Shown here: one piece after another, positions 29,448 through 52,435 of the stretch
Layout of the letters: each line of letters begins with the position of its first letter
Numbering within the stretch: position 1 is the first letter of the stretch
IMG/VR virus record: IMGVR_UViG_3300021964_000016
From: a virus
Length of the DNA: 64,000 nt
Strand: one strand, 5' to 3'
The notes under the pieces: model-generated
The model's input: only the letters and a program-made list of their open reading frames with translations
Told to the model about the DNA's origin: nothing
The model's database searches: none
Translations under genes and position numbers: made by a program

Positions 29448-30122
29448 TTATTCTCCGTAAGTTGAGGATTTTTCAAGAGCGATGTAGTAACATACATCAA
29501 CGCTTTCGTTAGTAAATTTGGAAATCAGACGAGAGGAAATCTCAACATCATAATTACCAGATAACAATTGCAGGTTAGCAATGTTCATAACGAAAGAGAA
29601 CTGCTCTGAATCGTATGAACCTGGAACCGTGATATTGAAAGCATTGGAAGTATCGTCTGTGTTATCAACAACAGACAACAAAACCCCACCTTCAGTAGCA
29701 GTAATTGTCATCTTCTCGTGACCCAACGTACCAGCGGCACGTCGAACCCTTCCCAAAGTTGCCTCGTCCAGTTTGAAACAAACTTCAGACTCGGGCATAG
29801 GAATATCTTTGGAGACAGTAGTTAGGATGTCTGCATCAGAGTAAAAATACTTAACGTTCGATCGACCACTAGAATCCTTTACAGTTACAAACTTGTCGCC
29901 AAGATCAAGGGTTGGGTCTTCTACCAAACTCAAAGCAGACAAGAACTGGTCTACATCATAAATTCCAAAAGACTTATCGAAAGACTGATTCAGTTTTGCA
30001 ACTGCCATTACGTTCTTGGCATCAGAAATTGTCTTAACAGTATTGCCTTCTAAGATTAGAAGGTTCTTTTGGATACTGGCGAAGTTCGCCAGAACTTCCA
30101 TAGTTGTTTCATTTAGTTGCAT
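29448..30122 (-). CDS. 45: DNA polymerase sliding clamp (gp45)
   Basis: LANFASIQ, FGIYD..FL, G.YDV.IS and YYIALE. Confidence 0.92.
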   Translation of the reverse strand: MQLNETTMEVLANFASIQKNLLILEGNTVKTISDAKNVMAVAKLNQSFDKSFGIYDVDQFLSALSLVEDPTLDLGDKFVTVKDSSGRSNVKYFYSDADILTTVSKDIPMPESEVCFKLDEATLGRVRRAAGTLGHEKMTITATEGGVLLSVVDNTDDTSNAFNITVPGSYDSEQFSFVMNIANLQLLSGNYDVEISSRLISKFTNESVDVCYYIALEKSSTYGE

Positions 30123-30151
30123 CACGCTCTCCTTTACAAGCAACAAATACT

Positions 30152-30179
30152 ATTATACACAAGTAGAATCAGATGTCAA
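30152..30179 (-). promoter_or_regulatory. sigma70-like promoter
   Basis: TTGACA-N16-TATAAT upstream of gp45. Confidence 0.65.
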
Positions 30180-31332
30180 GCGTTTCATTGACATTTTCTT
30201 CAGAGTCAAGACTCACAGTCTCGTCCACCTTGGTGTAGAGGTCACGGAAGGACAACTTGGTCTCTTCGTCGAAACGGTTGGTGCACATCTCGATCGCAGT
30301 CATACGGTCACCGAAGATTGCGTATGCTTTGACGATGTGAACCAGGCGGCGAGTCGAGATAATCTCGTCAACACCACCATCCATAAAGGTCTTGCGGATG
30401 ATATCTGCCCAGTCAACCAACTTCTGAAGATACTCGGTGTCCGACACGCCAACAGACGCTGCTAGTTTGTCGAGAATCTTGCGCTCGATAGCAGCAGAAG
30501 GATAATCCTGCTCACAGGTGATCGGGTATCGCTCAAGGAATGCTTCGTTGAGGATGTTAGTACCGATGAATCGACCATCGTCTGATCCTTTACCTTTGGT
30601 GTTGGCAGTAGCAACTACCGTGAACCCAGAGGCAGGTTGAATGTACTCACCAGTTTTCTTGATGAAGTATCCCTTGCCCTCAAGGATAGACTGAAGGCAC
30701 ATGACCTTCGCGGGATTAGCGAGATCAATCTCGTCGCAGAGCAGGACAGCACCTTGCTCCATTGCCTTGATTACTGGACCTTTGAAGAACTTGGTCTCGC
30801 CATCAACGAGTCGGAAACCACCGATCAGGTCATCCTCGTCTGTCTCGACGGTGAAGTTGACACGGATGACTTCACGTTTGGTGTGAGCACATACCTGCTC
30901 AACCATATAGGTCTTGCCATTACCAGACAGACCAGTAATGAAGATGGGATAGAACATATTGGACTTGATAATATCCCGAACCATCTTGAAGTTGCCGAAG
31001 GGAACATACAGATCGTCCTTTTCGGGAATCAGGTTATCCGTGAACCCGTCACTGCGCGCAGTCAGGGTGACAGTCGGTTGTATAGGTGCGGGCGTTTTCA
31101 CAACAGCAGGTTTTGGGGCAGACACTTTGCGTGTCGCGACTGATTTACCGATAGGCGGAAAATGATATTCGCCATTTTCAGCAAGGTTGTTAGCATTCAA
31201 GATCCGATACAGAGAGGGTATACCATTCTCTTTGGCGACACGCTTCACCTCATCCTTGGATATTGTTCGGGGTTCATCACCATACATACCAGCGAAGATG
31301 TCGACTAACTGTTGTGCTTTACTCATAACCAT
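30169..31332 (-). CDS. cobS: MoxR/CobS-like AAA+ ATPase
   Basis: GLSGNGKT, LLCDEID, ATANTKG, NEAFLER and STRRL. Confidence 0.88.
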   Translation of the reverse strand: MVMSKAQQLVDIFAGMYGDEPRTISKDEVKRVAKENGIPSLYRILNANNLAENGEYHFPPIGKSVATRKVSAPKPAVVKTPAPIQPTVTLTARSDGFTDNLIPEKDDLYVPFGNFKMVRDIIKSNMFYPIFITGLSGNGKTYMVEQVCAHTKREVIRVNFTVETDEDDLIGGFRLVDGETKFFKGPVIKAMEQGAVLLCDEIDLANPAKVMCLQSILEGKGYFIKKTGEYIQPASGFTVVATANTKGKGSDDGRFIGTNILNEAFLERYPITCEQDYPSAAIERKILDKLAASVGVSDTEYLQKLVDWADIIRKTFMDGGVDEIISTRRLVHIVKAYAIFGDRMTAIEMCTNRFDEETKLSFRDLYTKVDETVSLDSEENVNETLDI

Positions 31333-31363: not shown

Positions 31364-31424
31364 ATTATACGGCAAAACGAACCCAAATACAAGTTTGAAA
31401 AACTCTTGTAAAATCAATAACTTA
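31364..31424 (-). promoter_or_regulatory. sigma70-like promoter with upstream IHF-consensus box
   Basis: TTGTAT-N17-TATAAT plus AATCAATAACTTA at 31412-31424. Confidence 0.6.
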
Positions 31425-33740
31425 GGCAACCCTCTTGACGATGTCGATGAGCATCTTTCGGGCGCGGAGAGCATTGTTCGCTGACTTCTTGAACGCAGTT
31501 CGAATCTTTGCCTTTGACTCGCCAGCAGAAACTTCATCCATAGAGTTGGTCGCGGGAACCAGTGCTTTCTGGTTGACGATGAACATCTCGTCGTATCCAG
31601 GAACCACGATGGAGTAGTGTTCACCCTTGCCTGCCTTCTTCCATGCTTCAGGGTCACTAAAGAATACGCCAGTCATACGACCAACGACTTGCTGGAATTT
31701 TGCCTTGCCACCAGTCTGGACGAAGTATCCAAGTACAGTGGAATCAGTTATATCTTTGTACATCTTGAGGTACAACTCGGTGCCGACCATAGGGCGATTA
31801 CCAACCCAACCCCAACGATAAGTCTTGTTGTTCCAAGCGCAACGAATAGAAGTCATCGTATTTCTCTGACGTGCCATATGGTCAACGTAATCCCAACCAG
31901 AGTTGGTTGTGAGAGGATGAGAGTATCCATCGGTCAGGGTTATCGTGTTCAGGTTGTCCAGACGATACTTGGTTCGAAACTCGAGAGCAATCGGAATCAG
32001 GTGATTGATTGCAGTATCAAGAGGAGTACCGCCAAGTCTGAATACTTCAGCAGGGTTACAACGAAGACGGTTTCCATAGAAGCACAAATCAGGATGAGAA
32101 CCAAACTCTTTAACCGCTGTCCTGCTGTGGTTAGAAGCACCAGAAACGAGCAGTGCACCTGCGATTTCAGCAAGGTCAGACTTGGACATTTTCTCGTTGA
32201 AGATCTCGATCAGTCGGCAATCTTGGTTGAATTGAAGAGAGTTATCCTCAGTTTCTTCGCCATTTCGCCGACCATTATAGGACAAAGAATCGGAGAAACC
32301 ATACACGCGGAAAGGCACGTTGATCTGACGACAGAACATGGTCATCAGTAGAGTCTGCTTGACCACGTCATAGAACACATCGTTCATGGAACCAGACATG
32401 TCGAGTAACATCAGGAAACCGTGATTCTTCCCTTCAGGTACAACGGTGACTTTCTTGAAGATATCTTCTGAAGTCTTGTAGTTGTTCATCTTGATGGTGT
32501 CGATGACACCAGACTTGGAAATGGTTGCTCGCTGGAACTCAGCAGCAGACTTTCGCATCTCGAATTCTTTGACCATCAGGTTGATTGCTTTCTTGTTCTT
32601 GCTGTACCAACCACTGAACAATATATTGCCGAAGTTTTTACCATATACGCTGTAATCTTTTGCACGAGACTCTAATGTGGAAAATCGCCATGAAGAAGTA
32701 TCATCTTCCCCAGCGATCAACTCACATCGGATGTCGGCGAGCACAGTCTTGTAGTCTACGACGATATCGCCTGATGCTTTGGGAAGTATCCAATTTCTTA
32801 CAGTACCGTCGAAGTTCTGAAACACTTCACGGTCGATGTTGTCGCGCAGGTTCTTGTCTGTCTGAGACTCGATTGCCTGTTCGGTTGAAGTGTCAGATCG
32901 CCCACCCTGCTCGCCACCAGTTTCAGTGCCTGTCTTTTCATCCTGCTCGGGGGCAGTTTCTTCGCCAGTGCCAGTGGTGGCAGACTCAGGCGCATCAGCG
33001 TCGTCGTCTTCATCAGACTCTTCGCCCTGCTCTTCCTGCTGGGGTTTGTCGCTGAAGAGTTCGTCAAACTCATCCATCTCTTCGTCGTCGAAGTCATCAA
33101 CACCAGACATGCCAGCACCATCCTCGTCACCTTCTTCATCTTCGTCGGTGTCGGGGTCATTCGCCATTTCCTGTTCTTTCTGCTCCTGCTGCTCTTTGGC
33201 GAACTGGAACAATTCTTCAGTGAGGGCAACAACTTCTTCCCACGTCTCGAGTTTCTCGATGCGCGGCAACCAGTGTTTCTCGTCTGCTGCGAACTGAACG
33301 CCAGCAGACATACCGCACTTGAAGTAGGTGTTGATTCGGTCGATCAGACCCATCTTGTTGATGGTATCAAGGTCAGCACCGAAGAAACCGTCAGCGAACA
33401 GTTTGCGGTATGACTTGATGAAAGAACCACGAAGTCCAGGATACTTGCGCTGAATCAGTTTCTCGATTCGGGCATCCTCGACCACGTTGAGATATGACTT
33501 GAAAGAAGGACCACGATCGCACACAGCGTCATGCCAACCTTCAAGGGGAGTGAAGAGCGCGTGACCGACTTCGTGTCCAATCAGGTGGTCTTCGGTGTGC
33601 TTGGAAACGTCCGCCCACATGGGGAGAGTGAGTACACGATTCTTGACATCGAATGAAGCAGTAGAAACCTTGTCCTGAACCACTGATATATTCTCGGTGG
33701 CAAGCAGTTTTGCTAGGGTAGATTTGTTTGCTTCATTCAT
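31422..33740 (-). CDS. CobT-like metallopeptidase/VWA protein (MoxR partner)
   Basis: HEVGH and NVVEDARIE, an acidic linker, and MIDAS motifs DMSGSM, GGTPL and LTDG. Confidence 0.82.
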   Translation of the reverse strand: MNEANKSTLAKLLATENISVVQDKVSTASFDVKNRVLTLPMWADVSKHTEDHLIGHEVGHALFTPLEGWHDAVCDRGPSFKSYLNVVEDARIEKLIQRKYPGLRGSFIKSYRKLFADGFFGADLDTINKMGLIDRINTYFKCGMSAGVQFAADEKHWLPRIEKLETWEEVVALTEELFQFAKEQQEQKEQEMANDPDTDEDEEGDEDGAGMSGVDDFDDEEMDEFDELFSDKPQQEEQGEESDEDDDADAPESATTGTGEETAPEQDEKTGTETGGEQGGRSDTSTEQAIESQTDKNLRDNIDREVFQNFDGTVRNWILPKASGDIVVDYKTVLADIRCELIAGEDDTSSWRFSTLESRAKDYSVYGKNFGNILFSGWYSKNKKAINLMVKEFEMRKSAAEFQRATISKSGVIDTIKMNNYKTSEDIFKKVTVVPEGKNHGFLMLLDMSGSMNDVFYDVVKQTLLMTMFCRQINVPFRVYGFSDSLSYNGRRNGEETEDNSLQFNQDCRLIEIFNEKMSKSDLAEIAGALLVSGASNHSRTAVKEFGSHPDLCFYGNRLRCNPAEVFRLGGTPLDTAINHLIPIALEFRTKYRLDNLNTITLTDGYSHPLTTNSGWDYVDHMARQRNTMTSIRCAWNNKTYRWGWVGNRPMVGTELYLKMYKDITDSTVLGYFVQTGGKAKFQQVVGRMTGVFFSDPEAWKKAGKGEHYSIVVPGYDEMFIVNQKALVPATNSMDEVSAGESKAKIRTAFKKSANNALRARKMLIDIVKRVA

Positions 33741-34022: not shown

Positions 34023-34083
34023 ATTATCGCTGAAAATCAGTACAAAGTAAAGTAATAAAAAGTTCTTAAAAATCAACAACTTA
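34023..34083 (-). promoter_or_regulatory. sigma70-like promoter with IHF-consensus box
   Basis: TTTACT-N17-GATAAT plus AATCAACAACTTA at 34071-34083. Confidence 0.6.
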
Positions 34084-34618
34084 GAATGAAGTTGACTATC
34101 TCCTGTGTGTCAGAGGGAGTTTCATGACGCATCTCAATGACGCATCCTTTCTCCTCCCCGAACAGGGTCTGCTGGTCGCCGAAACGCTCAAGGATGTTGG
34201 CGCATTTGGTGCGGCAAGTCTGGATGAATTTCTCAGACTGGTCGGATCCTCGCTCTTTATATCGGCGTTCACGTTCAGCGGTCGATACAGTTAGGTGGAT
34301 AATGGTGAGGTTGTCGCCGCATGCTTCGAAGAAACCTGCGTTGTTCAAACGATCACCTTCGCCGACGATGAGTTCGTCGGGTTGAGTGGAGATCCACTCG
34401 ATTGCTTTGGGGGCAACTGCCATGCTCAGACGATCAGTACCACTGAAAGTCTCGCCTTCCTCATACTTGCCAAGGATACGGACAGTACCATTCACGTGAG
34501 TGTCAAGAAGGTCAATAGGTCGATCTTGCTTCCACTCACCACATTGAGTCTTCATAAACTCTTTCATGATGGTGGACTTGCCAGTTCCAGGAATGCCAAT
34601 AAGGTAGATCACTTTCAT
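34073..34618 (-). CDS. P-loop kinase of DNA-modification clusters (hydroxymethylpyrimidine kinase-like)
   Basis: GIPGTGKST, GTDRLSM and EGDRL; adjacent to the transferase-like gene. Confidence 0.75.
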   Translation of the reverse strand: MKVIYLIGIPGTGKSTIMKEFMKTQCGEWKQDRPIDLLDTHVNGTVRILGKYEEGETFSGTDRLSMAVAPKAIEWISTQPDELIVGEGDRLNNAGFFEACGDNLTIIHLTVSTAERERRYKERGSDQSEKFIQTCRTKCANILERFGDQQTLFGEEKGCVIEMRHETPSDTQEIVNFILSC

Positions 34619-34845
34619 TGGTTGGTGAATCTCCCGAATTCCATAATAAAGTTCTGTGCCATGATCTCTTTTTCAAAGTAAAAGGAATGTTGGTATATGT
34701 TGGTAAAAGATTTAAAATGCCAAGACTCTTTGCCCATTAATCTCTTGCACCAATCCTTTCCTTCTCGCTCAAGGTCGCTGTGCAAGGTGACTTCAAATCC
34801 AGGCATCCAACTATTCTTGTAATCGAATATCTGTTGTGGGGTCAT
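34615..34845 (-). CDS. hypothetical protein
   Basis: 76 aa; ATGA-coupled inside the operon. Confidence 0.7.
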   Translation of the reverse strand: MTPQQIFDYKNSWMPGFEVTLHSDLEREGKDWCKRLMGKESWHFKSFTNIYQHSFYFEKEIMAQNFIMEFGRFTNQ

Positions 34846-35813
34846 ACAAAAAAATCCTCTAACGCATTCGTTCTGTCCTTTGGGTGAAAGTCTCCCGTAT
34901 CAAGGAACAAATTGAATAGTTCTTTGTCTATTCTGCCCTTTAACCACTCTCGATCAATCGTTTCGTTTCTAGCATCCCACATAGGTGTCCAGTCAATCCC
35001 GTCCCAACCATCTCTCTCAACCTTTCGTATTTCTTCTGATTGTCGATCAAGGTAGTATCCAAGATATCGACCATGTTTTCTACGGAATAGTTTTTTGAAG
35101 GAGCAGAGGCAGGTTTCCATGGCAAAGAAGTCTGCCTTATCAGCAACGTGAGGATATTTTAGTTTGGTTTCTTCTAACATTTCCTTTGCTTCACTTTCCA
35201 GAAATGCTATTTGATCTTTGTCCAACTTTTGATCTACCCAATCTTCTTTTCCTAGTGCGTAACATAGTCCGTTACGATGCGAACGAGAACCGCTATAGTC
35301 GTGCAACCAAAGACTATCAACATCAACTGGAATATCACAGCACTGTTTGAGCGTTTGGATATAAAACCAAGAAGAGTATCTACCAAATTTGTGAAACGCA
35401 TTAACTGTCTCCCAAACAGTATAGAAATCCTTTACGGGGTCTCCGACAAATCCTTGTGTGAGTGCATCGTGTTGTGTTCGTTCTCCAACATATCGCTGGT
35501 ACGAAACGAACTGATCTGCAAGATGTCCTTTATTCCATTTCGTGTCGGTTTGATAACGCAAGCGGCGATAATTGGTGTTATTCCAATCGCGAAGGCGATC
35601 AACGCCAACCAACTCCATGTCGGGGAATTCGTTCCAAACCACATAGGCAGTTGGCCAATAATAAGTTGTTCCATAAATCCAAGTTATCCAGAGTCTTTGT
35701 TCTTTGTTGTATTCAAAACGATCAAAGAAGTATTTAGTCATGTACAATGCAGGGTCGCAGTCTTCTATTTCAAGACTGCGACCGAACCACTCTACAAATT
35801 TTTCTTTATACAC
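34842..35813 (-). CDS. amino acid:DNA transferase-like protein (aGPT-Pplase2 type, HhH-glycosylase fold)
   Basis: DCDP, KFGRYSSWFY and METCLCSFKK...RYLGYY motifs; C-terminal LEDFFV. Confidence 0.72.
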   Translation of the reverse strand: MYKEKFVEWFGRSLEIEDCDPALYMTKYFFDRFEYNKEQRLWITWIYGTTYYWPTAYVVWNEFPDMELVGVDRLRDWNNTNYRRLRYQTDTKWNKGHLADQFVSYQRYVGERTQHDALTQGFVGDPVKDFYTVWETVNAFHKFGRYSSWFYIQTLKQCCDIPVDVDSLWLHDYSGSRSHRNGLCYALGKEDWVDQKLDKDQIAFLESEAKEMLEETKLKYPHVADKADFFAMETCLCSFKKLFRRKHGRYLGYYLDRQSEEIRKVERDGWDGIDWTPMWDARNETIDREWLKGRIDKELFNLFLDTGDFHPKDRTNALEDFFV

Positions 35814-37263
35814 TAATATCTCTCGCGTTGATATAAAATAGTTCTGAACCTTCTCCTTTGGTTAAATAAGGCAGCACATATATATGAATATCTGGGCAAA
35901 CTTGTCTTTCAACCATAAGATCTTTTTTGAAGATTGATAAGATATGATCTCTGTCTTCAGTTATCTTTTCTCTTGGCACGTGACAAACTAAAACGCCAAC
36001 TTCTCCATTTTCTCTGTAGTTTCTTATTGCCGCACTATGGCAGTTACCAATCTGTGCGACACTAAATTCACCTTTACCAACAGATTTCACTTTGTATTTT
36101 CTCTTCAAATCTTTTATGAAAGATTCTCGACTTTGCCCCATGAGTCGGTTCACACTTTGCACACCCACATACTTTGCGTCTAACGCAGAGAGAGTTTTCT
36201 CAGAAACAAGTTGTTTCTCAATTGAACTAAATGCCGACTTAATCTTCGGGTCTGAATAATAGGAATCTCGTAAAATACTTCTCAGTTTTTTCTTTGAAAC
36301 GTTGTCGTTTAGCAAGTTGAGTTTTCTTTCCCAACTAACCTCAACCCCTTGTTTTTTGATCATATCCTCTAAATGGAAATGTAAACTCTGTTTGGCATCA
36401 TGCCCATCATTGACTTTATTTGTTTGGGTGTTATTATTGACTCGGTCTAGGAACTGTCTTACTAATCCGATATCACTATTGAAGTGAATTTTATAGTCCA
36501 TTCTGACAACGTACATAGAGTCTATGCCTATCTTGTGACAAACCTCAGTGCTATGATGTCCGTTACCTATGACCTCTTCTGGCATTGAGGGATAATCGTT
36601 TACCAATAAGACTGGTTTACAGTTTGCCGTTGGATCAATACCTCTAGAACGCTCGTCTTGGAATTTTTCCGTGAGTGTTTTTATATGAGAATCATCGTGA
36701 ACCTGGTTTCTAACTTGAATATTGTATCCATTTTTGATTTTTAAATACAAAGTTGAAACCATCTCTTTTTCTTTATTACTCTCATCATAATAAAAATTTT
36801 CTAATCTGGAAAGTATTTCTTCTGCGCTTTGCTGCTTTCCGACTTTGTAGTTCTCGACATCTTCTACGATTGACGCGACTGTGTCACGAACTTGTTTAGT
36901 GTCATAAGAAGTCAAGTCATACTCGCCCAAATCTAATCCGCTACCGTTTGATTCGTTATAAAAAGTTTCACGTCGTTTTGCATTCAGAGCTTGCAATACC
37001 CTTGTCTCAACTAACAGTGCGTGACCCGTGAGCATAGGAGATCCGTCTGATAATTGGTTCCAGTCTAAAACCCTGTCGAGGTCAGGTGAATCGTTCAAAA
37101 AATTGCTAGTTTTACAAGAACCCACATAAGCAGAATTTATTTCTTTAGTGTCTAACCCAAAATACTTGTGCCCAAACCTTGTTGAGATAGGGTTTGTGTT
37201 ACAGGTCAAATAAACGCCGGAGGGTTTTGACAAAAAGGGATTACTGTTTTGTTGATACGTCAT
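35806..37263 (-). CDS. uncharacterised protein with degenerate GIY-YIG/Seg-like N-terminus and ParB-like middle domain
   Basis: GVY...YVGS...E..VL...FYN..NG and QVR...PVLLV...NGHH; own promoter. Confidence 0.5.
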   Translation of the reverse strand: MTYQQNSNPFLSKPSGVYLTCNTNPISTRFGHKYFGLDTKEINSAYVGSCKTSNFLNDSPDLDRVLDWNQLSDGSPMLTGHALLVETRVLQALNAKRRETFYNESNGSGLDLGEYDLTSYDTKQVRDTVASIVEDVENYKVGKQQSAEEILSRLENFYYDESNKEKEMVSTLYLKIKNGYNIQVRNQVHDDSHIKTLTEKFQDERSRGIDPTANCKPVLLVNDYPSMPEEVIGNGHHSTEVCHKIGIDSMYVVRMDYKIHFNSDIGLVRQFLDRVNNNTQTNKVNDGHDAKQSLHFHLEDMIKKQGVEVSWERKLNLLNDNVSKKKLRSILRDSYYSDPKIKSAFSSIEKQLVSEKTLSALDAKYVGVQSVNRLMGQSRESFIKDLKRKYKVKSVGKGEFSVAQIGNCHSAAIRNYRENGEVGVLVCHVPREKITEDRDHILSIFKKDLMVERQVCPDIHIYVLPYLTKGEGSELFYINARDISV

Positions 37264-37302
37264 AATAACTATCCTTACAATTAAGTTACACAATACAGAT
37301 GT

Positions 37303-37363
37303 ATTATGCTATAACCGTTAATCAAAGTAAAATATCGAAAACCCCTGTAGAATCAACAACTTA
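37303..37363 (-). promoter_or_regulatory. sigma70-like promoter with IHF-consensus box
   Basis: TTTACT-N17-CATAAT plus AATCAACAACTTA at 37351-37363. Confidence 0.6.
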
Positions 37364-37903
37364 CAGAAACCCTTCCAGTCCAAGGGGTTCGTCAGCGAAT
37401 ACTTCAACACATCCTCCCTTGCCTTTTTTGTGTACTGCTTCATAGATCGGTTTATTTTCTAGACTATAATCGCCGTCAAAGAAGGTGTCACCAGTAATCC
37501 GAAACATAGATAATTGACACCCACTCTTTTGCTTCCCGAGCATAGTGAACCCAATTCGCTCGTAGAACTTTACAGCGTCAGGTTCAGCGGATACTCTAAA
37601 ATACAAAGCAGCGTTCTGTCTCGCAAAGCGGAGAGAGTCCTCGCAAAGAATACGACCAACCCCCTTACCTCTATGTTTAGCAAAGGTGTGAAGAAGTTGT
37701 AGGTTTGCTACTTTTGGGGAACGTTTGCTTATTGTTGTAATGATTGCACCTAGAAGAGAATCATCCTCATCCCAAGCACCTATACAAAAACTCCATTGCT
37801 CCTGCATATTTGCCTTGGCGACAAAAGTTTTTGCAAACTTGTCAGCAGGATCATCGGTTATTGCGTTTTTAAATTGTTCAGCAGAACATTCACGCAACTT
37901 CAT
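37361..37903 (-). CDS. GNAT-family acetyltransferase
   Basis: HRGKGVGR acetyl-CoA motif A and AVKFYERIGF. Confidence 0.88.
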   Translation of the reverse strand: MKLRECSAEQFKNAITDDPADKFAKTFVAKANMQEQWSFCIGAWDEDDSLLGAIITTISKRSPKVANLQLLHTFAKHRGKGVGRILCEDSLRFARQNAALYFRVSAEPDAVKFYERIGFTMLGKQKSGCQLSMFRITGDTFFDGDYSLENKPIYEAVHKKGKGGCVEVFADEPLGLEGFL

Positions 37904-38765
37904 GAAATTCTCTTTTCTTCTCTCCGCGAGACTTATCGTACTTTGTATTCATCCAACCTTTATACTCTCCTGGATTCCAAACGAAAGGAGGGAAGTTGAA
38001 GTTTCTAGAATCTAGGATCTCTTCAACACTAGGTCCGTCATTCAGAGCAGCATCAATAAATGCTTCAGCAAATATAAACTGATCTTCAATCTGTTTGCGA
38101 TCAGTTGTAGACCTGAAGCAACGGAACTCGATAGTACCAGTGTGCTTCATACAATAGGTGTTGATTGCATGGCGGAAAGGGCGACCCATTGAAACACCGT
38201 CCTTACCTGCTGCATGAAGTTTGATGAAGTGATCAAAATCTTCTGCAAGGTTTATGATGTTGTCACACATATAATCTGGCATTAGTCGACCGCCATCATA
38301 CTTCAAGTAAGTCTTTGAACCTTTGAGTATTTTCATCTCTGGTCTCTGACCAAATTGGTAACAAGACTCAACGGTTAGTTCTTGATTCTCTTTTATGTAT
38401 GCAATCAGTCGCTTTAAACCGTCAACATCTTCTTTCAGTCCAGGGACATAAACATGAAGGTGTCCATGATTGACGCAAGAGGCAGATGGTTTGTCTCCAT
38501 TCGCAACAAACAAATCATGTATCTCCATGATTCGATCTACTTGTTGTTGCCAAGTGCTTGTAGGTTTTGTATTGACTTCTCCACCGACAGGTGGTTCTAA
38601 TCCAAGAGGGTCGCAAGCAACAAACCTGTATGGTTCGTGAATGTTCACAATATCCGTTTCTGCATGTTCCCACGATCCAAGGTGCTCTGGAATTTCCAAA
38701 GTTCGGTCAATGTCACCCCATTCAATCTCATATCCATAAGTAAAGTCTTTTGGATTATAATTCAT
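37890..38765 (-). CDS. amidoligase (COOH-NH2 ligase, glutamine-synthetase-like fold)
   Basis: TYGYEIEW, GGEVNT, HGHLHV and TIEFRCF. Confidence 0.78.
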   Translation of the reverse strand: MNYNPKDFTYGYEIEWGDIDRTLEIPEHLGSWEHAETDIVNIHEPYRFVACDPLGLEPPVGGEVNTKPTSTWQQQVDRIMEIHDLFVANGDKPSASCVNHGHLHVYVPGLKEDVDGLKRLIAYIKENQELTVESCYQFGQRPEMKILKGSKTYLKYDGGRLMPDYMCDNIINLAEDFDHFIKLHAAGKDGVSMGRPFRHAINTYCMKHTGTIEFRCFRSTTDRKQIEDQFIFAEAFIDAALNDGPSVEEILDSRNFNFPPFVWNPGEYKGWMNTKYDKSRGEKKREFHEVA

Positions 38766-39433
38766 TGCAAGTCCTCCAGGTCAGGGTCGAAGAATCTCCT
38801 ATCTTCGTATAACCCACCATAATTACTGTAAGTGTATTTCACAAGAGGTTCGCATTTTTCTACATGACCTTCGATGCGAGACCTTCTAATTATATCTTCT
38901 GTTGAAGCAAAGATAAGACCGTTATCTCTTGGTGCCATCCAAAGAGGACGTTCATGATTTCTCCAACCATGTAGAACTCCATCTTCTATAGCGACGCATG
39001 CCATACTTCGGTGTTTGTAAACCTCAAGAGGAGTATCACCTGCCTCAATACATCGAAGTATCAATTCAGAATCATTTAAAGTCTCTGTTTCGTATTCCCA
39101 AATGTCTGGGTCTTGAGAGATAACTCCGTTGTGTGCGATAGAAATTTCTTTGCCTTGAAACGGTTGATTGTAACGTAGATCCGAAGTAGAGTATCGAGTA
39201 TGCCCTATACACAATAGAGTATCTCCGTCAACCCAATCTTCAACCGTGGTATGTCTGCCAAGGAAAAGGTAAGAGGAAGTTGGTTCTTTAATTGTATTGA
39301 ATTTACCGTCTTTGAAAAAGGTGACGCCAGTGGCATGTTTCCCGCGAATCATTGATTCTAAGAAAAGGTTACTAACTAATCCGCAATCAGCAGGAGTAAC
39401 ATCAGTGAGGTATACACCAATCACTCCGCACAT
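38762..39433 (-). CDS. class II (Ntn) glutamine amidotransferase domain protein
   Basis: MCGVIG N-terminal Cys, RG, GHTRYST, HNG, DSE and RPL. Confidence 0.88.
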   Translation of the reverse strand: MCGVIGVYLTDVTPADCGLVSNLFLESMIRGKHATGVTFFKDGKFNTIKEPTSSYLFLGRHTTVEDWVDGDTLLCIGHTRYSTSDLRYNQPFQGKEISIAHNGVISQDPDIWEYETETLNDSELILRCIEAGDTPLEVYKHRSMACVAIEDGVLHGWRNHERPLWMAPRDNGLIFASTEDIIRRSRIEGHVEKCEPLVKYTYSNYGGLYEDRRFFDPDLEDLQ

Positions 39434-40833
39434 TAAAAGAAATCCTCTAATGAACCAGCAACTTCAAATGCTTTAGGATGATACTGACGAACCATCGACT
39501 CGCCGCCTTCAACAGTCAACCAATCATACCACTCTTGTTCGTCCCACATGGAAGGCGATACACCATTCCAATATGGACGCCACAGTGGGTGTTCTTCATT
39601 CTTGCGGCGAGCGTCAACATAGGCACGACGCAGGTGCTCATACTCCCAACTACCCAACTTCGCCATATCCTCACGGAAATAAAATACGAGAGACATGCGC
39701 ATCAGGTCATCTTCACCAGTATCAGGTGCTTCGATTGGAGTGTTACCGTGGATAACTCGCATGTTGTCGACGAGCAACAGGTCACCAGGTCGGACATTAA
39801 TAGCAGCACGAACTTCAGGGCAAACGAGGTATCCGCCTTTCCAGTTTTTCTTGCCATCACTGATTACCGTCAAGTTAGAATAACCTTCGTTCAAAGAACC
39901 AGCATCGCGATGGCATGCCATACGAGCATTGCGATCTTTGGTGGTAGTATTGACAGTGATTGTGGTGAAAGTAGTATCTTCGCCAATCAGAAACTTTGGG
40001 TCAACTTTATCCGCCCATTTCTTTTGACGAGAATGACGAACAGGGAGTAATTCTGCGAAAGTTTTTTCTAGTTTCCTTGCGAACGGATAGCACTTTTCAA
40101 ACGTTTCTCTATGGTGATCAGTATACGCTGTAGCGCGACCATAAGGTATGCGAGGATAACGACCATAGAACCCAGCGATACCACTCCAAATAGCAGTGGC
40201 ATAAGAAGTATCTGAAATAAAATCTGTTTTAATTTTTTTAGCATATGCTTTTGCCTCTTCAAGAGGCATGGACTTCAATTTCTCCTCTAGTTTAGGGAAG
40301 AAATTTTTGTAGTCTCCGAACTCTGGTTCCACTTTGGTGCGTAACCAAACACCACCGCGAATCTCATCCTTATTTATATTTGCAAATTCAACGAGTGGAT
40401 CTGAACCATCGATACTCGGTGGTTGTCCTTTTGCATACCAATCAAGTACATTAGATTGGTAAATAGTCACCCAATCTCTCCCGCCCTGAGTTTCTTCTCT
40501 TGGACCTGCTGCTAGACCACGGTTATTTGATTCTACTGCTGCACCATACAAACCCTCAAAAGCACCGTCTTGTTCTTCTTGAGTGAAAACATTCTTACGA
40601 AACTTAAAAGCAATAAGATCTTCATCATGTGTTTCTTCAGTTATATCGCTAGAAGGAAGATAAAAGTCTGTATCCTCTTCTATTAACAAGTCGTAAGAAG
40701 TTTCGTCCGCATAAGTACCAAGAACAGCATCATCCGATTCAAGAAACTGTGCGACGTAAACATCTTGACCTTGATCGCCTTTGTATTTCTTCCATTGGCG
40801 ACCTGAAATATTAATCAATTCCATGAAGAACAC
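39433..40833 (-). CDS. TET/JBP-family 2OG-Fe(II) 5-methylpyrimidine dioxygenase
   Basis: FTTITVN, HRDAG (HxD), HGNTPI and RMSLVFYFRE; C-terminal SLEDFF. Confidence 0.82.
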   Translation of the reverse strand: MFFMELINISGRQWKKYKGDQGQDVYVAQFLESDDAVLGTYADETSYDLLIEEDTDFYLPSSDITEETHDEDLIAFKFRKNVFTQEEQDGAFEGLYGAAVESNNRGLAAGPREETQGGRDWVTIYQSNVLDWYAKGQPPSIDGSDPLVEFANINKDEIRGGVWLRTKVEPEFGDYKNFFPKLEEKLKSMPLEEAKAYAKKIKTDFISDTSYATAIWSGIAGFYGRYPRIPYGRATAYTDHHRETFEKCYPFARKLEKTFAELLPVRHSRQKKWADKVDPKFLIGEDTTFTTITVNTTTKDRNARMACHRDAGSLNEGYSNLTVISDGKKNWKGGYLVCPEVRAAINVRPGDLLLVDNMRVIHGNTPIEAPDTGEDDLMRMSLVFYFREDMAKLGSWEYEHLRRAYVDARRKNEEHPLWRPYWNGVSPSMWDEQEWYDWLTVEGGESMVRQYHPKAFEVAGSLEDFF

Positions 40834-41000: not shown

Positions 41001-41510
41001 CTATTTTCTTTTTTTAGTCAAGTATTCGTTCCCGTGTGAGGCATGTGGACCATTGGCATCAACATAGTGGAGGAAAGACTGATATACAAAGTCAGCAGGG
41101 TTCTCTTCTCTCCAATGCTCAACATCACAACCACGATAAATCACTGCGTCTCCTTGTTTCATCAAAACAGAACCTCCCTCCCAGAAAAACTCCCAAGGAA
41201 CTTGCACGTTTTTTAGGTTTATGGTAACTGAAACTTCGCAAGAAGGTCTATCGGCATGACGGCGAAGGATATTATCTTTTTTATATATCCTACAATAATC
41301 ATATGTGGGTACCAATTCTATGCCAGTTATTTCAGACATCTTATCACAACAGTCTTCGAGTAAGTCCCAGTGTAACCCATACCATGCCCAAGAATTAGGA
41401 ACTTGAGTATCGTCTGTCCTAGAAATCACCTTATTATCGTCCATACGAGAAGCGTGCTTCTCAGCGACTTCTTTCTCTATAAAATTCGGAACATAAGTTG
41501 CTAATTTCAT
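41001..41510 (-). CDS. 2OG-Fe(II) oxygenase
   Basis: HADRPSCEVS, GDAVIYRG..HWR and FLHY. Confidence 0.82.
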   Translation of the reverse strand: MKLATYVPNFIEKEVAEKHASRMDDNKVISRTDDTQVPNSWAWYGLHWDLLEDCCDKMSEITGIELVPTYDYCRIYKKDNILRRHADRPSCEVSVTINLKNVQVPWEFFWEGGSVLMKQGDAVIYRGCDVEHWREENPADFVYQSFLHYVDANGPHASHGNEYLTKKRK

Positions 41511-43225
41511 TTCTTGATCTTAGAGAAGTTTTTATCTTTGACGAATTCTATTTTAGCGTCAAACTTGCCATCTAGAATATCACCCTTATGAGAAATAATA
41601 AAGACGTTTGTATCATCTCCAAGGGTATGTATTATCTTCATTAGGTTTTCAATACCTGCTTCGTCAAGTGAAGAGTCGAAGGTCTCGTCCAGTATCAAAA
41701 GATTTGTGCTGATCGAGTTCTTCATCTTGGCAACTTGACGCCAAGTAAAGAGAAGTGCTAAGTCTATTCTCTGTTTCTCGCCTTCAGAGAAAGAATCGTA
41801 AGAAAATGAATCACGGTGGCGAGAACGTATTGTTTCTGAAAAAGATTCGTCTAGGTCAAAGTGAACATAGAAGTCAAGAATAGACAAATACTGGTTGACC
41901 AATTTGTTGATCACTGGAAGGTATTGTTTAATGATCTTGGTTTTGATACCAGTATCTTTTAGCATCTCTGATATGACAGTATTGTATGCTGCCTGATCAT
42001 TCTGTTTATTTTTCGTTTGCATCAATTCATGATATTCTTTCACCAGAACATCGTAGTCGTCGTTTGCTTTTGCAAGATCTGACTTCTCGTCACTAAGATC
42101 TTTTATGTCCCATTCAAGTTCTTCAATATCATATTTTATCCTTTCGATGTTTTCATCGTTATCAAACATCTTTCGACTAACTTCAACCAGTTCTTGTGAC
42201 TTTTCTACCCAATGATCTAATTCTTTTGTTGCTTCTGCTTGTTTCTCTGTGATTTCAGTAAGAGATGATTGAAACTCTGACGCTGAGACTTTTGCTTGCT
42301 CGAGTTTACTCTTCTTGAGTTGTTCGTCGATGTCTTGCTCGCAGGTCGGGCACGTTTCGTTTTTCTCATAGAATTTGGTCTCTTTTACCAATGCTTTTAT
42401 TTTAGTGAGGATTTCAGTATTAGAATTCTGTAATTCTGAAACCAAAGAGTATGCATTTTTGCGCTTTTCAGCAGTATTATCAGAAAACTCTTGAAGATAC
42501 TTTCTTTTCTCGTTATTGTCCTTTTGAAGATCGTCAATCAAATCCTGCTTCTGCTTGATCTGTTCTTCAATCTTTTTCTTTTCATCATGTTTTATTTTAG
42601 ATATATCACGGATGTACTTTTTTTGTGCTTCCGTTTTGGTTTCGTTTATTTCAATGTCGTGTAACGTTTGATTTATTTTCTCTCGTAACGTAGCATTCTT
42701 TTCTTTTAGAAGAGAATTCATTTTAGAAAAAACGTTAATGTCTAGCAAATCTTCGATAACTTCTCTTCGATTGAATGCAGACAATTGCATGAAGGGTATG
42801 AACGAAGAAGAACCAAGAACAACAACTTGATGGAAAGTTTTATGATTTAGTTTAAGTATGTTCTGTTCAAGAATCTTCTGATACTCTTTGTTGTGTGAGT
42901 TTTGGTTCATAAGAACCCCATCAGCATAGATCTCAAACTTTACTGGTTTTAATCCTCTAACAACTTTATATTTTTTATTACCAATAGAGAAATCTACTTC
43001 AACTCTCATTGCCTTTTGGTTTACAGAATTAACCAGTTGCCCTTTGTTTATTCCTCTATGCGGTTTTCCAAATAATGCGTATGACACGGCGTCTAGCATT
43101 GTAGACTTACCAGAACCATTCTGCCCCACAATCAACGTGTGGTTAGCATTATTCAATTGTATTTCTGTCCAATTGTCGCCAGTAGAAAGAAAGTTTTTGT
43201 AACGTATAGATTTAAAAATTATCAA
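41507..43225 (-). CDS. 46: recombination endonuclease ATPase subunit (gp46, Rad50-like)
   Basis: GQNGSGKS, CPTC zinc hook, FSEGE and LDETFD. Confidence 0.95.
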   Translation of the reverse strand: MIIFKSIRYKNFLSTGDNWTEIQLNNANHTLIVGQNGSGKSTMLDAVSYALFGKPHRGINKGQLVNSVNQKAMRVEVDFSIGNKKYKVVRGLKPVKFEIYADGVLMNQNSHNKEYQKILEQNILKLNHKTFHQVVVLGSSSFIPFMQLSAFNRREVIEDLLDINVFSKMNSLLKEKNATLREKINQTLHDIEINETKTEAQKKYIRDISKIKHDEKKKIEEQIKQKQDLIDDLQKDNNEKRKYLQEFSDNTAEKRKNAYSLVSELQNSNTEILTKIKALVKETKFYEKNETCPTCEQDIDEQLKKSKLEQAKVSASEFQSSLTEITEKQAEATKELDHWVEKSQELVEVSRKMFDNDENIERIKYDIEELEWDIKDLSDEKSDLAKANDDYDVLVKEYHELMQTKNKQNDQAAYNTVISEMLKDTGIKTKIIKQYLPVINKLVNQYLSILDFYVHFDLDESFSETIRSRHRDSFSYDSFSEGEKQRIDLALLFTWRQVAKMKNSISTNLLILDETFDSSLDEAGIENLMKIIHTLGDDTNVFIISHKGDILDGKFDAKIEFVKDKNFSKIKK

Positions 43226-43446
43226 AGTGGAAATCTCTCTCTCAATTCTTCGAATCCGCCAATATACTCACCGTCAACATAAACCTGAGGAATTTTTAAA
43301 TTCGGTTTATATTTTTCGTCTTTCTGAAACTTTGTTTTGCTTAGATCTATAAAGAAAGTCTTAAATCCAAGTGCCTCAAAATGCAGTAGGCACCTTAAAG
43401 TGTGTCCACACCATGCATACCCAACAACATGGATCACAAATCTCAC
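43222..43446 (-). CDS. glutaredoxin-like protein
   Basis: WCGHT active-site position and IPQVYVDGEYIGGFEEL. Confidence 0.7.
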   Translation of the reverse strand: MRFVIHVVGYAWCGHTLRCLLHFEALGFKTFFIDLSKTKFQKDEKYKPNLKIPQVYVDGEYIGGFEELRERFPL

Positions 43447-44504
43447 GCAATCTCCATTGATTGTGCTTCTGTCATTAAGTCCGAAACCTCTTTTTTAATC
43501 CGTTCTTTATCTAAAAGAGTTTCAACGTTATCGATGTAAGATCCAAGTAAGACACTAGTATCTTCTACATCCAAACCTTCATCAGAAACGTTTTCTCCCA
43601 GAAACTCTGAGAAGTCTTCCTGTACTTTTAGATCATAAATTTCTCTTTGTTGTATACGATCCAAAAATCTATCAAATGTGAAAGGGTCGTTTTTATTAAT
43701 AACAACGACTTTAACAAATTTTTGATCGAGGTGATCAATTTCAAGTTTGTTATAGTCAGCAACTTCATCATCGTAATAAATTTTTTCATGAAGAGTTAAT
43801 GGGTTTTGTACAGGGATCAGTTCTCTTGTCTCTGTATCGAGTATGTGGAAATACTTTGGGTCGTTTGCATCGTTCCAAAAGAATTCCATCTGGGAACCAA
43901 GATAGTGAATATTGTCTTGACTAGACTTACAATGATAGTGTCCTGAAAGCACCAACTCAAATCTACGAAGGTTGTCAGCAGACATACCATGAGTACAAGG
44001 AACTCCGCGAATCATATCAAACCCGTTTAATTCAAAGTGTCCTCCGATAACATCTGCTTTACAGTTTACAAGGAAATCATTTATCTCTTTTTCATTATCT
44101 TGACAAATCCAAGGAACTAGACCAACCTTCAACCCATCATAATCAAGGACGCTTGGGTCCATCACAATATTAACTTCGTTCATGTAATGACCCAACAACT
44201 CTTTTAAAGAATTTAGGTCATTCGTATTTTTGTAATAAGTGTCATGATTACCTGGGATTATATCCATAGTAATTCCATCAGAACGAAGTCTCTCAAGAAA
44301 AACCTTCCGATTGCTATTCAGTGCTTTAAAATTGATGAAACGACGATGTTCATAGTAATCACCAAGATGGATGATATGCTTGATGTGGTTTTCTTTTAGA
44401 TAAGGGAAGAACACTTCAGTATAGAAGCGTTCTTGATAATCAATAAAGATGTCTGACGAATTACGAATACCACAATGAGTATCGTTTAAAATTGCTATGC
44501 GCAT
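43443..44504 (-). CDS. 47: recombination endonuclease nuclease subunit (gp47, Mre11-like)
   Basis: DTH, GD, GNHD and SGHYH phosphoesterase motifs. Confidence 0.95.
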   Translation of the reverse strand: MRIAILNDTHCGIRNSSDIFIDYQERFYTEVFFPYLKENHIKHIIHLGDYYEHRRFINFKALNSNRKVFLERLRSDGITMDIIPGNHDTYYKNTNDLNSLKELLGHYMNEVNIVMDPSVLDYDGLKVGLVPWICQDNEKEINDFLVNCKADVIGGHFELNGFDMIRGVPCTHGMSADNLRRFELVLSGHYHCKSSQDNIHYLGSQMEFFWNDANDPKYFHILDTETRELIPVQNPLTLHEKIYYDDEVADYNKLEIDHLDQKFVKVVVINKNDPFTFDRFLDRIQQREIYDLKVQEDFSEFLGENVSDEGLDVEDTSVLLGSYIDNVETLLDKERIKKEVSDLMTEAQSMEIA

Positions 44505-45092
44505 TTATTCCTCGAGAAAATCTGAAAGGTCTGAATCTATAGAAACTTTTCTTTTGTTCGAAAGGGTCTTTTTATATTGCTTTATTTTTTCGTCTTTTTC
44601 TTTTACGTCGTCAATCCTTCTACGAAGATTGTCAACAAAGGATTGAACTGCTTTTGCAACTTGAGGATCTTCATCTGGGTCGACCATAAATTCCTCTATT
44701 GCGGATTCTGATAAGAACTTCAATTTAACATCCTGCTGCTTCTTTTCTTTCTGAATACGGCGAAGGAAAGCATACCAAGAGATCTGAGTGAAATATCCAA
44801 ACGCATTTGGTTTACCTTTTCGAGTCGCCGCATCGATATCGTAGTTCTTTACAGCACGAAGGCAGTTCTCTACAGCATCCATTACCATCTCTTCACGATA
44901 GGTGTAGCGAACAAAGTTAGACTTGTGAGAAAGACCCTCTGCGATCTTAAGGAAACACTCTGCAACATAGTTCGGCATAACTGGTTCAGGGTTGTTTTTC
45001 GTTTCTGCTTCCCGTACAGATTTTACATAGTCAACCACTGCTTGCGAGAAATCAGCATTATTAACATAATGCGGGCGTTCATTAGGTTTCAT
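44505..45092 (-). CDS. 55: late-transcription sigma factor (gp55)
   Basis: HYVNN, YTYREEMVMDAVENC and NAFGYFTQI..AFLRRI..EKKQ. Confidence 0.95.
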   Translation of the reverse strand: MKPNERPHYVNNADFSQAVVDYVKSVREAETKNNPEPVMPNYVAECFLKIAEGLSHKSNFVRYTYREEMVMDAVENCLRAVKNYDIDAATRKGKPNAFGYFTQISWYAFLRRIQKEKKQQDVKLKFLSESAIEEFMVDPDEDPQVAKAVQSFVDNLRRRIDDVKEKDEKIKQYKKTLSNKRKVSIDSDLSDFLEE

Positions 45093-45150: not shown

Positions 45151-45539
45151 TCTTCTGTAAGAAGTCCTTTCTTGGAAGGAAATGACAAAACATTGCTGGT
45201 CTTACACTCAACCTCAGATCCGCCCTTTCCTAAGTGCTCTTGTATGGAGACTACAGAGTTTGAGTACTGCTCGACGACTGTGTCAGAGGGGGTATGAATT
45301 GAGATAACAGAGAAAGGATTGATCGAAACCGTCCTTTCCAAATCTTCAGTATATTGAATATAAGGACGAAGTATATAATATGACTTACCATTATTATCAT
45401 ATTCATCTTCTATATTCTCAATAGGAACCATATCTAAAGCGAAGTTAACAATGAAACTGTCTTCAGATTGTTCAATAACGCAGGCAATAACATCTTGCCC
45501 ATTACAAAGTTTAAATTGTACTATATCTTCTTTTTTCAT
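45147..45539 (-). CDS. hypothetical protein between uvsW and gp55
   Basis: QFKLCNGQDVIA N-terminus; position typical of T4-like genomes. Confidence 0.65.
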   Translation of the reverse strand: MKKEDIVQFKLCNGQDVIACVIEQSEDSFIVNFALDMVPIENIEDEYDNNGKSYYILRPYIQYTEDLERTVSINPFSVISIHTPSDTVVEQYSNSVVSIQEHLGKGGSEVECKTSNVLSFPSKKGLLTED

Positions 45540-47002
45540 AAAACCACCTTATGTAGTTCGAAGTCAAACTTTTCTTTGGTATACATTTTGATCCTTTCCC
45601 CAGCATGCTTCAGGGTGAAGTTTTGCCTAGAATGATACTGCATATCATCGGAAAGATCGTATAGTTTTGTGTCCTGTCCGTTATCTGCTTTCCTCAATCC
45701 TCTTCCGATTGATTGGAGGACTTTGACTTGGGATTTTGAAGGACTAGCAAAAATAATGTTATGCAGATTCCTAATGTTAATCCCAGTACTAAATGTACCA
45801 AGAGAGGCGACGATAATTGCTCCGTCTTGTTTCTCCACGATACCTCGTATTGCTTCGCGGTCTGAGGTATCAGTCCCACCGTGAACATAATAGACTTTAT
45901 CGCTTTGTACTTCTTTAATCATTTTGTGAAGTATTTCTCCGTGTTTCTCCACGAACTGAAAAAGCACGAGAGTATTCCCCTTTTGAGTTACTGCCAAATT
46001 TCGTATAAACTTATTCCTAGGTTCATATGTCACAAGAAAATCTACTTCTTCTTGATATGTCAACTCTTTATTCATTATACGGGTTTCTTCTGAATAGTCA
46101 AGTAATAACATGTCTATCTTGAGTTTAGCGAGGGTTCCTTTGTCCTGTAGGTCTCTAGTAAAAGTAACCCTTTTAGTGGGACCAAATAAACCTTCAAGAA
46201 CAAGTTTGTGTACCTGAGACCCGTCTAGCGTTCCTGTAGTTCCGAATCTATACTCTGCTTCCGTACACTTATTCATTAAGGTGGTGAGGGACTTTGCTTT
46301 AAATAGATGACACTCGTCGCCAAACACACAACCAAACACATCAAACCAATCTTTGCCTAGTCTGTAAACCGATTGCCAAGTTGTGATCACTATTCTTTTG
46401 TCTGTTTTCTTGTCTTTGCCTGAGTAGATTATGTGACATTCATTCTCTGCATCAAACCCATAATCTTTAAAATCTTTGTACATCTGTTCAACCAAAGAGG
46501 TCGTGGGCACTACAATCAACACAGACTTATCGTTGTTCTCCAGATACCAACGCATAAGATTGTATATTATGAAAGATTTGCCAGAGCCAGTAGGAGAGAG
46601 CAGCACTGCTCTCTTTCTCTGTATTCCATGCGTGATAGCATCGTACTGATAATCACGAGGAGGAAATGGCATTTTCCAAAGTGCTTGCGAGGATACTAGT
46701 TTCTGGTGATCAACTTTATTAGTCGCATTCGGTAGTCCATAAGGCGAATGCTCCATTTGCATATGGTAGTGACGGTCTGCTGCAAAACGACAAAGTTTAG
46801 CATACAACCCAACATTAAGTTCGCAGGTTATGGGATTAAACAAACGAATCTTACCGTCCCACTGTTTGCGACGATAAGAAGGAATAAATTTATATCCAGG
46901 AACATAGAAAGAAAAGTATTCTTTGAGTTCTGCGCGAACAGAAGGATCACAGACTACTGCCATCATAGAATGATTTTGCATTTGAATGGTTATATTAGAC
47001 AT
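45536..47002 (-). CDS. uvsW: SF2 helicase UvsW
   Basis: PRDYQ, PTGSGKS, DECH and QSIGRGLR; start MSNITI at 47002. Confidence 0.95.
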   Translation of the reverse strand: MSNITIQMQNHSMMAVVCDPSVRAELKEYFSFYVPGYKFIPSYRRKQWDGKIRLFNPITCELNVGLYAKLCRFAADRHYHMQMEHSPYGLPNATNKVDHQKLVSSQALWKMPFPPRDYQYDAITHGIQRKRAVLLSPTGSGKSFIIYNLMRWYLENNDKSVLIVVPTTSLVEQMYKDFKDYGFDAENECHIIYSGKDKKTDKRIVITTWQSVYRLGKDWFDVFGCVFGDECHLFKAKSLTTLMNKCTEAEYRFGTTGTLDGSQVHKLVLEGLFGPTKRVTFTRDLQDKGTLAKLKIDMLLLDYSEETRIMNKELTYQEEVDFLVTYEPRNKFIRNLAVTQKGNTLVLFQFVEKHGEILHKMIKEVQSDKVYYVHGGTDTSDREAIRGIVEKQDGAIIVASLGTFSTGINIRNLHNIIFASPSKSQVKVLQSIGRGLRKADNGQDTKLYDLSDDMQYHSRQNFTLKHAGERIKMYTKEKFDFELHKVVL

Positions 47003-49984: not shown

Positions 49985-50008
49985 TGTTATTCTCCTAGAG
50001 TAAATGGA

Positions 50009-51061: not shown

Positions 51062-51074
51062 AATGGACTCCTTG

Positions 51075-51940: not shown

Positions 51941-51946
51941 AGAGTA

Positions 51947-51954: not shown

Positions 51955-51960
51955 CTAATA

Positions 51961-52431: not shown

Positions 52432-52435
52432 TTAA

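Follow-up and report, generated by a model that had tools for sequence, protein, structure and literature searches.

In a 64,000-nucleotide stretch of DNA (hereafter the window) from the IMG/VR virus record IMGVR_UViG_3300021964_000016, which represents part of the genome of a T4-like phage, a DNA-hypermodification operon sits between the genes for the sliding clamp gp45 and for gp46. Three enzymes of this operon, a TET/JBP dioxygenase, an amino-acid:DNA transferase (AADT), and a GNAT acyltransferase, end in short peptides that are very probably gp45-binding motifs, of the same kind as those predicted at the C-termini of the phage's own DNA polymerase gp43 and late sigma factor gp55. That these enzymes carry the docking peptide of the polymerase had been proposed from the DNA letters alone (the original prediction), and every comparative test that we ran supports it. 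The tail is conserved and modular, it co-varies with the polymerase tail, and it is absent where gp45 is absent and from structural and other replication proteins, and the scan that highlights it picks out gp55 and gp33, both known clients, when applied to T4.

In T4, the hydrophobic-acidic C-termini of gp43, gp55, and gp33 bind gp45 and are interchangeable, and the linker of gp55 can be replaced by Ser-Gly (PMC2988020). The window encodes homologues of gp45, gp44, gp62, and gp43, and its gp43 bears the same tail as the enzymes, so that, by analogy with T4, gp45 is the proposed docking partner.

Results

Tails in the window

The polymerase gp43 ends in ...VISLEDFFG, the TET/JBP enzyme in ...AGSLEDFF, the AADT in ...NALEDFFV, and gp55 in DLSDFLEE, and in the GNAT the end ...LGLEGFL has been added after a domain that closes with ...GGCVEVF. 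These C-termini and that of an amidotransferase, the six on which the original prediction was built, are all encoded where it had placed them (Table 1), and its family assignments hold. The enzyme tails SLEDFF, ALEDFFV, and GLEGFL resemble those of the T4 clients (SLDFLFG, SLDFLYE, and TLDFLL), and the motif is separated from the stop by 0-1 residues in TET, AADT, GNAT, and gp43, and by 2 residues in gp55. Among the 92 open reading frames (ORFs) of the window, with 19,958 amino acids, there are four matches to L[ED].F[FL] against an expectation of 0.075, each of them at a C-terminus (gp43, TET, AADT, and GNAT). The looser pattern L[EDSG].[FLW][FLWMY] has five C-terminal matches, gp55 being the addition, compared with 0.28 expected (Poisson P ~2e-6). 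These counts cover the 64-kb window; the complete genomes of C48C1, DLP6, Cr30, T4, ViI, D506, Cygsa01, and Bue1 were used in place of a whole-genome count. None of the roughly eleven structural proteins of the window (homologues of gp13 to gp23) carries the motif, which disposes of the concern that it might be equally common at the C-termini of such proteins. The codons of the shared residues differ at synonymous sites, reading CTT GAG GAC TTT TTT in gp43, TTA GAG GAT TTC TTT in TET, and CTG GAA GGG TTT CTG in GNAT, which argues that the repeat is selected in the protein and rules out a repeated DNA element at the gene ends.

In an unbiased scan, the C-terminus of each ORF was scored with BLOSUM62 against the cognate polymerase tail. 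Applied to T4, the scan places gp55 and gp33, both experimentally known clamp clients, directly after gp43. In the window, TET (z 6.4) and AADT (z 5.6) lead, followed by gp41, gp55, and GNAT, the GLEGFL end of which scores more weakly (z 2.7). The tail of the Bue1 polymerase has a longer basic extension on which the fixed-window scan is mis-centred, and this genome was compared by eye. BLAST searches of the window with T4 proteins gave no homologue of gp33, and a PHROG search of three small acidic-tailed ORFs gave no match.

The gp41-type replicative helicase, which ends in ISIEGFKL (z 3.7), was considered as a further client. However, its orthologues in six related contigs keep a different pattern, [FY]x[GD]FK[FVL], at the extreme C-terminus, and we treat this as a separate motif, whose partner is possibly the helicase loader or the primase.

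Conservation and modularity

Querying IMG/VR with the TET protein led to 73 related loci. Of the 73 TET homologues, which range from ~44 to 95% in identity and display 37 distinct tail sequences, 71 retain the tail [S/T]-L-[E/D/G]-x-[F/L]-F. All 38 full-length AADT orthologues (~45-95% identity) finish with G-L-[ED]-x-hydrophobic, 29 of them in the strict pattern and nine as GLENF. In the alignments of both families, the linker before the tail is short and gapped, with column identities of 0.0-0.3, whereas the tail columns, L-E-D-F-F and G-L-E, reach 0.5-0.9 and are most conserved at the Leu and Phe positions. A conserved island following a variable linker is characteristic of short linear motifs. 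An AlphaFold (AF2) model of TET, with a mean predicted local distance difference test (pLDDT) score of 80, places the last six residues in a terminal turn of pLDDT ~52, suggesting that the tail would be exposed at the terminus. About 10 of 22 GNAT orthologues have the tail, and the remainder stop at GGCVEVF/Y. The expectation that the tails would be conserved among orthologues is thus borne out for TET and AADT, but for GNAT in only about half of the cases. Eight control families (gp44, gp45, gp46, gp47, UvsW, RegA, the amidoligase, and the glutamine amidotransferase (GATase)) lack the tail in every homologue.

The tail is also modular, being found on unrelated DNA-modifying folds. Among the 1,422 ORFs of related contigs, it ends several proteins that lack a counterpart in the window: TET-associated glycosyltransferases (TAGT, PF20691), GNATs of a second family, a glycosyltransferase of the GT1 type, and a small 2-oxoglutarate (2OG) oxygenase. 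With the exception of a few ORFs that are short or unassigned, all tail-bearing ORFs in this set are polymerases, gp55, or DNA-modification enzymes. A D12-class Dam methylase carries the tail in phage C48C1. In the complete genome of this phage (207 ORFs, 50,475 amino acids), three of the five occurrences of the strict pattern are C-terminal, on gp43, Dam, and TET, and the looser pattern adds gp55 as the sole further C-terminal match.

Co-variation with the polymerase tail

Within the clade of the window, co-variation between the gp43 and TET tails was not seen, all of them falling within one consensus (in contig L035, for example, the polymerase ends in SLDCFFE and TET in TLEDLFD), and co-variation is therefore informative only between lineages. 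At that level it provides the strongest evidence that the tails share a partner. Distant homologues of AADT are encoded by ViI-like and related phages that also possess a gp45 clamp. In Salmonella phage ViI, the polymerase ends in VNLLSMMGKKG, the AADT (Vi01_199) in VNLMSLLKR, the HMUD2 kinase (Vi01_196) in VSLLGLMRKA, and a 70-residue protein of the family phrog_4789 in VNLLSLMRK. In Vibrio phage D506, the corresponding ends are ARKLW, TRKLW, TKKLW, and, for both the HMUDK helical protein and the 99-residue phrog_4789 protein, TKRLW; the D506 proteome contains five instances of [KR][KR]LW in total, all of them C-terminal and on exactly those five proteins. Pseudomonas phage Cygsa01 has SVMDFFS on the polymerase, DLMGFFQ on the AADT, VFDLF on the HMUD2 kinase, VLDLF on the HMUDK helical protein, and LLDFF on the phrog_4789 protein. 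Four tail types (LEDFF, NLLSLM followed by basic residues, [KR][KR]LW, and DFF/DLF) can thus be distinguished; within a lineage, polymerase and modification enzymes have the same type.

When tails were permuted among eight genomes, the cognate polymerase-client score was 20.6, compared with 11.0 for non-cognate pairs, and 6 of 40,320 permutations reached the observed value, with clients partly chosen by eye. A permutation of AADTs only, in which orthologues were picked by homology alone and one tail-less protein was included, gave 6 of 720 (p ~0.008). The net charge of the D506 clamp is -23, the most acidic of the set (-6 to -14 in the others, -14 in the window), and the D506 tails are strongly basic, although this is a single weak data point.

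The phrog_4789 proteins (70-103 residues), which carry the polymerase-type tail of their own lineage in ViI (30355-30567; L122:10355-10567), D506 (55591-55890; L113:15591-15890), and Cygsa01 (109399-109710; L134:9399-9710), may be gp33-like clamp-dependent factors. In Vibrio phage VPALA (L178, 2340-3368 and 4779-7971), an AADT-like protein, a 408-residue protein, and a DNA methyltransferase all end in STAKRLW. The VPALA polymerase gene is split by an inserted ORF, and the sequence of its C-terminal part is AKR-stop-W-stop, a TAA standing at the position of the clients' Leu.

The tail is confined to genomes in which a gp45-type clamp is encoded. Mycobacterium phage Hangman, which has an AADT, a kinase, and ParB and has neither gp43 nor gp45, encodes no protein with such a tail, and it is also missing from the TET homologues of two small phages, HTVC112P and P12024L. 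In Nonlabens phage P12024L (L176), which has no clamp of its own, a DNA methyltransferase (2167-2925) ends in QQTLF and its neighbour (2927-3562) in NQLEIF. These ends resemble the bacterial beta-clamp motif QL[SD]LF, which would suggest docking to the clamp of the host.

The hypermodification operon and its tail-less proteins

The gene set of the operon (Table 1) agrees with the thymine hypermodification clusters of phage 5-methylpyrimidine dioxygenases (PMC13229309). The kinase gene lies downstream of that for AADT, separated from it by one 76-residue ORF (34615-34845). The 495-residue ORF between the GNAT and AADT genes has no tail, no Pfam or PHROG match even at E<=1, and a homologue only in contigs L015 and L018, and is probably an insertion. 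ParB (PF02195) was not matched by any ORF of the operon in profile searches at E<=1; a ParB-like identity of the 495-residue ORF, which was considered, thus finds no support at the profile level. The promoter-like sequence upstream of a 60-residue ORF and TET suggests early expression, although the number of promoter-like sites in the region does not exceed that in shuffled sequence. Between gp45 and the operon, on the same strand, lie an AAA_5/CbbQ-type ATPase (30169-31332) and a 772-residue acidic protein (31422-33740) without a family match.

Table 1. Features of the window, as identified by BLAST against T4 proteins and by profile searches (Pfam and PHROG); all genes lie on the minus strand.
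Feature	Position	Strand	Match or remark	Tail-encoding positions
Dam methylase, D12-class	2062-2952	-		
gp41	9135-10592	-		
UvsX	10911-11954	-		
gp43, family-B DNA polymerase	14569-17088	-	phrog_262 E=0; PF00136 (DNA_pol_B); 32% identity to T4 gp43	14572-14592 (SLEDFFG)
RegA	17936-18349	-		
gp62	18431-18841	-		
gp44	20039-20980	-		
gp45, sliding clamp	29448-30146, probable ATG start 30122	-	PF09116 E=2.7e-13; phrog_223 E=1.9e-66, aligned from residue 9	
P-loop nucleotide kinase 3, 5-hydroxymethyldeoxyuridine (5-hmdU) DNA kinase type	34073-34618	-	PF18751 E=2.3e-17, 63.6 bits	
AADT	34842-35813	-	PF18724 E=5.9e-21, 75.7 bits (gathering cut-off 26.2)	34845-34865 (ALEDFFV)
495-residue ORF	35806-37293	-	no family assigned	
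GNAT acyltransferase	37361-37903	-	PF13673 E=2.9e-13	37364-37381 (GLEGFL)
Amidoligase-like protein	37890-38765	-	PF12224 E=6.4e-4, below cut-off	
Ntn-type glutamine amidotransferase	38762-39433	-	GATase_6, PF13522	
TET/JBP 2OG/Fe(II) dioxygenase (5-methylpyrimidine dioxygenase)	39433-40833	-	Tet_JBP PF12851 E=2.5e-15, 56.5 bits (Pfam gathering cut-off 34.9), residues 238-388	39436-39453 (SLEDFF)
Sigma-70-like promoter TTGACT-17-TATAAT	41021-40993	-	11/12, consensus match only	
gp46	41507-43225	-		
gp47	43443-44504	-		
gp55, late sigma factor	44505-45092	-	phrog_234 E=3.8e-52	44508-44531 (DLSDFLEE)
UvsW	45536-47164	-		
Structural block, gp23 to gp13 homologues, roughly eleven proteins	48629-61590	-		

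Several proteins of the window end differently. The kinase has no clamp-type tail, and the core motif is found in none of its 12 homologues, while the kinases of ViI-like phages do carry a tail. The amidoligase-like protein has a conserved end, ...KKREFHEVA, and the motif is absent from all 23 homologues. The amidotransferase, which ends in ...PDLEDLQ, had been taken as a weak clamp client, but what is conserved in it is D[LY]Q, which all 43 homologues carry within their last eight residues and which no other family has; we therefore regard this as a family-specific element and reject the protein as a client. The window Dam ends in ...EDQRTSII, whereas the 41%-identical Dam of C48C1 ends in ...STLDAFFG, and no remnant of a lost tail was found in any frame downstream of the window Dam stop.

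Discussion

By analogy with T4 and RB69, we infer that TET, AADT, and GNAT dock to gp45 rings left on DNA that has just been replicated, which they would modify as they slide along it. The gp44/62 loader would place gp45 trimers at primer-template junctions and nicks, and the clamps would remain on the new duplex. Each enzyme would consist of a globular catalytic domain, a short variable linker, and a tail that docks in the hydrophobic site of gp45, which would keep the enzyme on freshly replicated DNA and allow one-dimensional scanning. TET would convert thymine to 5-hydroxymethyluracil, the tail-less P-loop kinase would phosphorylate the product, and AADT would exchange the phosphate for an amino acid. 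The appended group would then be tailored by GNAT, probably with the products of the amidoligase and the amidotransferase. As gp45 is a trimeric ring, it could carry several clients simultaneously, in the manner of a toolbelt. In this scheme gp45 is the presumed partner by homology with T4 and RB69, and the sequence of the chemical steps, as well as any influence on how far and when modification proceeds, is likewise proposed.

More generally, we tentatively propose that in clamp-encoding phages, both T4-like and ViI-like, post-replicative hypermodification may be carried out by a clamp toolbelt that works as an assembly line. Its portable C-terminal tags would be matched to the phage's own clamp, would be gained, lost, and re-tuned together with the polymerase tail, and would make the clamp a required cofactor for efficient modification. 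We regard this wider scheme as plausible rather than probable. Some phage 5-methylpyrimidine dioxygenases (5mYOXs) without ParB are inactive when expressed alone in E. coli (PMC13229309), and a requirement for the clamp as cofactor would explain this.

A number of observations weigh against this reading. About half of the GNAT orthologues have lost the tail, and the window Dam has no tail while that of C48C1 has one, which indicates that tethering is dispensable for some steps. In this clade, the 5-hmdU DNA kinase is tail-less even though its substrate must be DNA, and this, together with the tails on the ViI-like kinases, weakens the earlier suggestion that the motif-less amidoligase makes a soluble precursor, a missing tail being a poor guide to the substrate. 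Among the statistical tests, the eight-genome permutation relied on clients selected in part by eye, and the AADT-only test, which avoids that choice, is the weaker of the two. Finally, promoter swaps in T4 attribute the share of alpha-glucosylation mainly to expression and not to interaction with gp45 (PMC13216743), so clamp docking could be of modest importance for function.

In one alternative, the tails do bind gp45, but chiefly for a purpose other than replication-coupled modification. They could, for instance, compete with gp43 or gp55 and thereby time the change from replication to late transcription or back, or they could do no more than raise the local concentration of the enzymes, with modification levels hardly affected. 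The use of the same gp45 site by gp55, the limited contribution of the gp45 interaction to the glucosylation share in T4 (PMC13216743), and the dispensability of the tail in some GNAT and Dam orthologues all fit this alternative. We nevertheless consider it improbable, because nearly all bearers of the tail are DNA-modifying enzymes, with many different folds, and because 71 of 73 TET proteins and every AADT retain it, which points to selection on the enzymes' own function.

Co-variation implies a shared partner without naming it, and the tails might accordingly bind another component of the replisome instead of gp45; candidates would be the clamp loader, gp32, and a hypothetical scaffold for a modification complex. 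Such a partner is quite improbable given that the polymerase and gp55 bear the same tail and that the partner of their T4 and RB69 homologues is gp45, as established by crystallography and biochemistry (PMC2988020). The restriction of the tail to gp45-encoding genomes points in the same direction, as does the pairing of basic tails with the most acidic clamp (-23) in D506, for what a single weak data point is worth. That the tail is a C-terminal degradation or turnover signal, or an element for folding or solubility, unrelated to DNA tethering, appears very unlikely: short hydrophobic C-termini are able to act as bacterial protease tags, but this general knowledge finds no support in the present data, and a degradation signal would leave unexplained the tail on an essential polymerase and a sigma factor, its co-variation between lineages, and its absence in clamp-less phages. 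A resemblance by chance, compositional bias, or a repeated DNA element, to which the shortness of the motif and the weaker GNAT match (z 2.7) might have pointed, is already refuted by the four occurrences against 0.075 expected, the differing synonymous codons, the 37 distinct TET tails conserved at 45% identity, and the absence of the tail from eight control families.

If clamp docking of the modification enzymes is correct, it would account for rapid and complete modification after synthesis, by which the DNA escapes host nucleases, as the enzymes would travel on the clamp left on new DNA. Base-modifying enzymes would join the clients of gp45 as a whole class, in parallel with DNMT1 and PCNA in eukaryotes. 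From the point of view of annotation, a polymerase-like C-terminal tail would flag proteins that act on DNA, including the GNAT, the substrate of which is otherwise unassigned. To reconstitute phage dioxygenases, AADTs, and glycosyltransferases for biotechnological use, the matching clamp and its loader may have to be supplied. Moreover, the tail types of the lineages (LEDFF, NLLSLM with basic residues, and RKLW) offer a natural experiment on a short linear motif co-evolving with its hub.

Comparison with known systems

Like the gp45-binding epitopes of T4 and RB69, the tails described here are short hydrophobic-acidic peptides at the extreme C-terminus that follow a variable flexible linker, and the pattern [S/T]-L-[D/E]-x-aromatic fits T4 gp43 (ASLDFLFG), gp55 (SLDFLYEAND), and gp33 (TLDFLL). 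Unlike those epitopes, which sit on a polymerase and on transcription factors, the peptide here is found on base-modifying enzymes (TET, AADT, and GNAT here; TAGT, GT1, and Dam in relatives), for which clamp docking is predicted. The T4 alpha-glucosyltransferase co-purifies with gp45, according to PMC13216743, which cites and confirms Sommer et al. 2004, and it offers a precedent for a DNA-modifying enzyme that is associated with gp45 and is proposed to modify DNA concomitantly with replication. In contrast to the enzymes of the window, however, this protein has no polymerase-type tail (it ends in ...KEQFDIITK), and such a tail is also lacking in T4 Dam and beta-glucosyltransferase.

With the pathway of ViI-like phages and the 5mYOX clusters (PMC13229309), the operon shares a dioxygenase or another supply of 5-hmdU, a 5-hmdU DNA kinase, an AADT (formerly aGPT-Pplase), and a GATase, in a route that is post-replicative and proceeds on DNA. 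In those clusters, a ParB activator and a C-terminal extension domain in those 5mYOXs that depend on ParB have been described, with no mention of a processivity-clamp tail, whereas the operon of the window has no ParB match and carries the tails.

In eukaryotes, the maintenance methyltransferase DNMT1 is tethered to PCNA behind the fork. Clients of PCNA with a PCNA-interacting-protein (PIP) box and clients of the bacterial beta clamp with QL[SD]LF likewise use a short linear motif by which diverse DNA enzymes are tethered to a clamp as to a toolbelt (PMC9690074), but the clamp family and the motif differ from those considered here, where the clients form a multi-step viral hypermodification pathway. 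Full-text literature searches, with subscription journals outside their coverage, found no paper describing polymerase-type clamp tails on hypermodification enzymes, and the closest studies treat ParB activators and gene neighbourhoods only (PMC13229309; bioRxiv 10.1101/2023.12.21.572611). A clamp-tethered DNA-modifying enzyme is therefore known already, from the T4 alpha-glucosyltransferase and from DNMT1 with PCNA; what is new is a portable tag, matched to the polymerase, across a multi-enzyme pathway.

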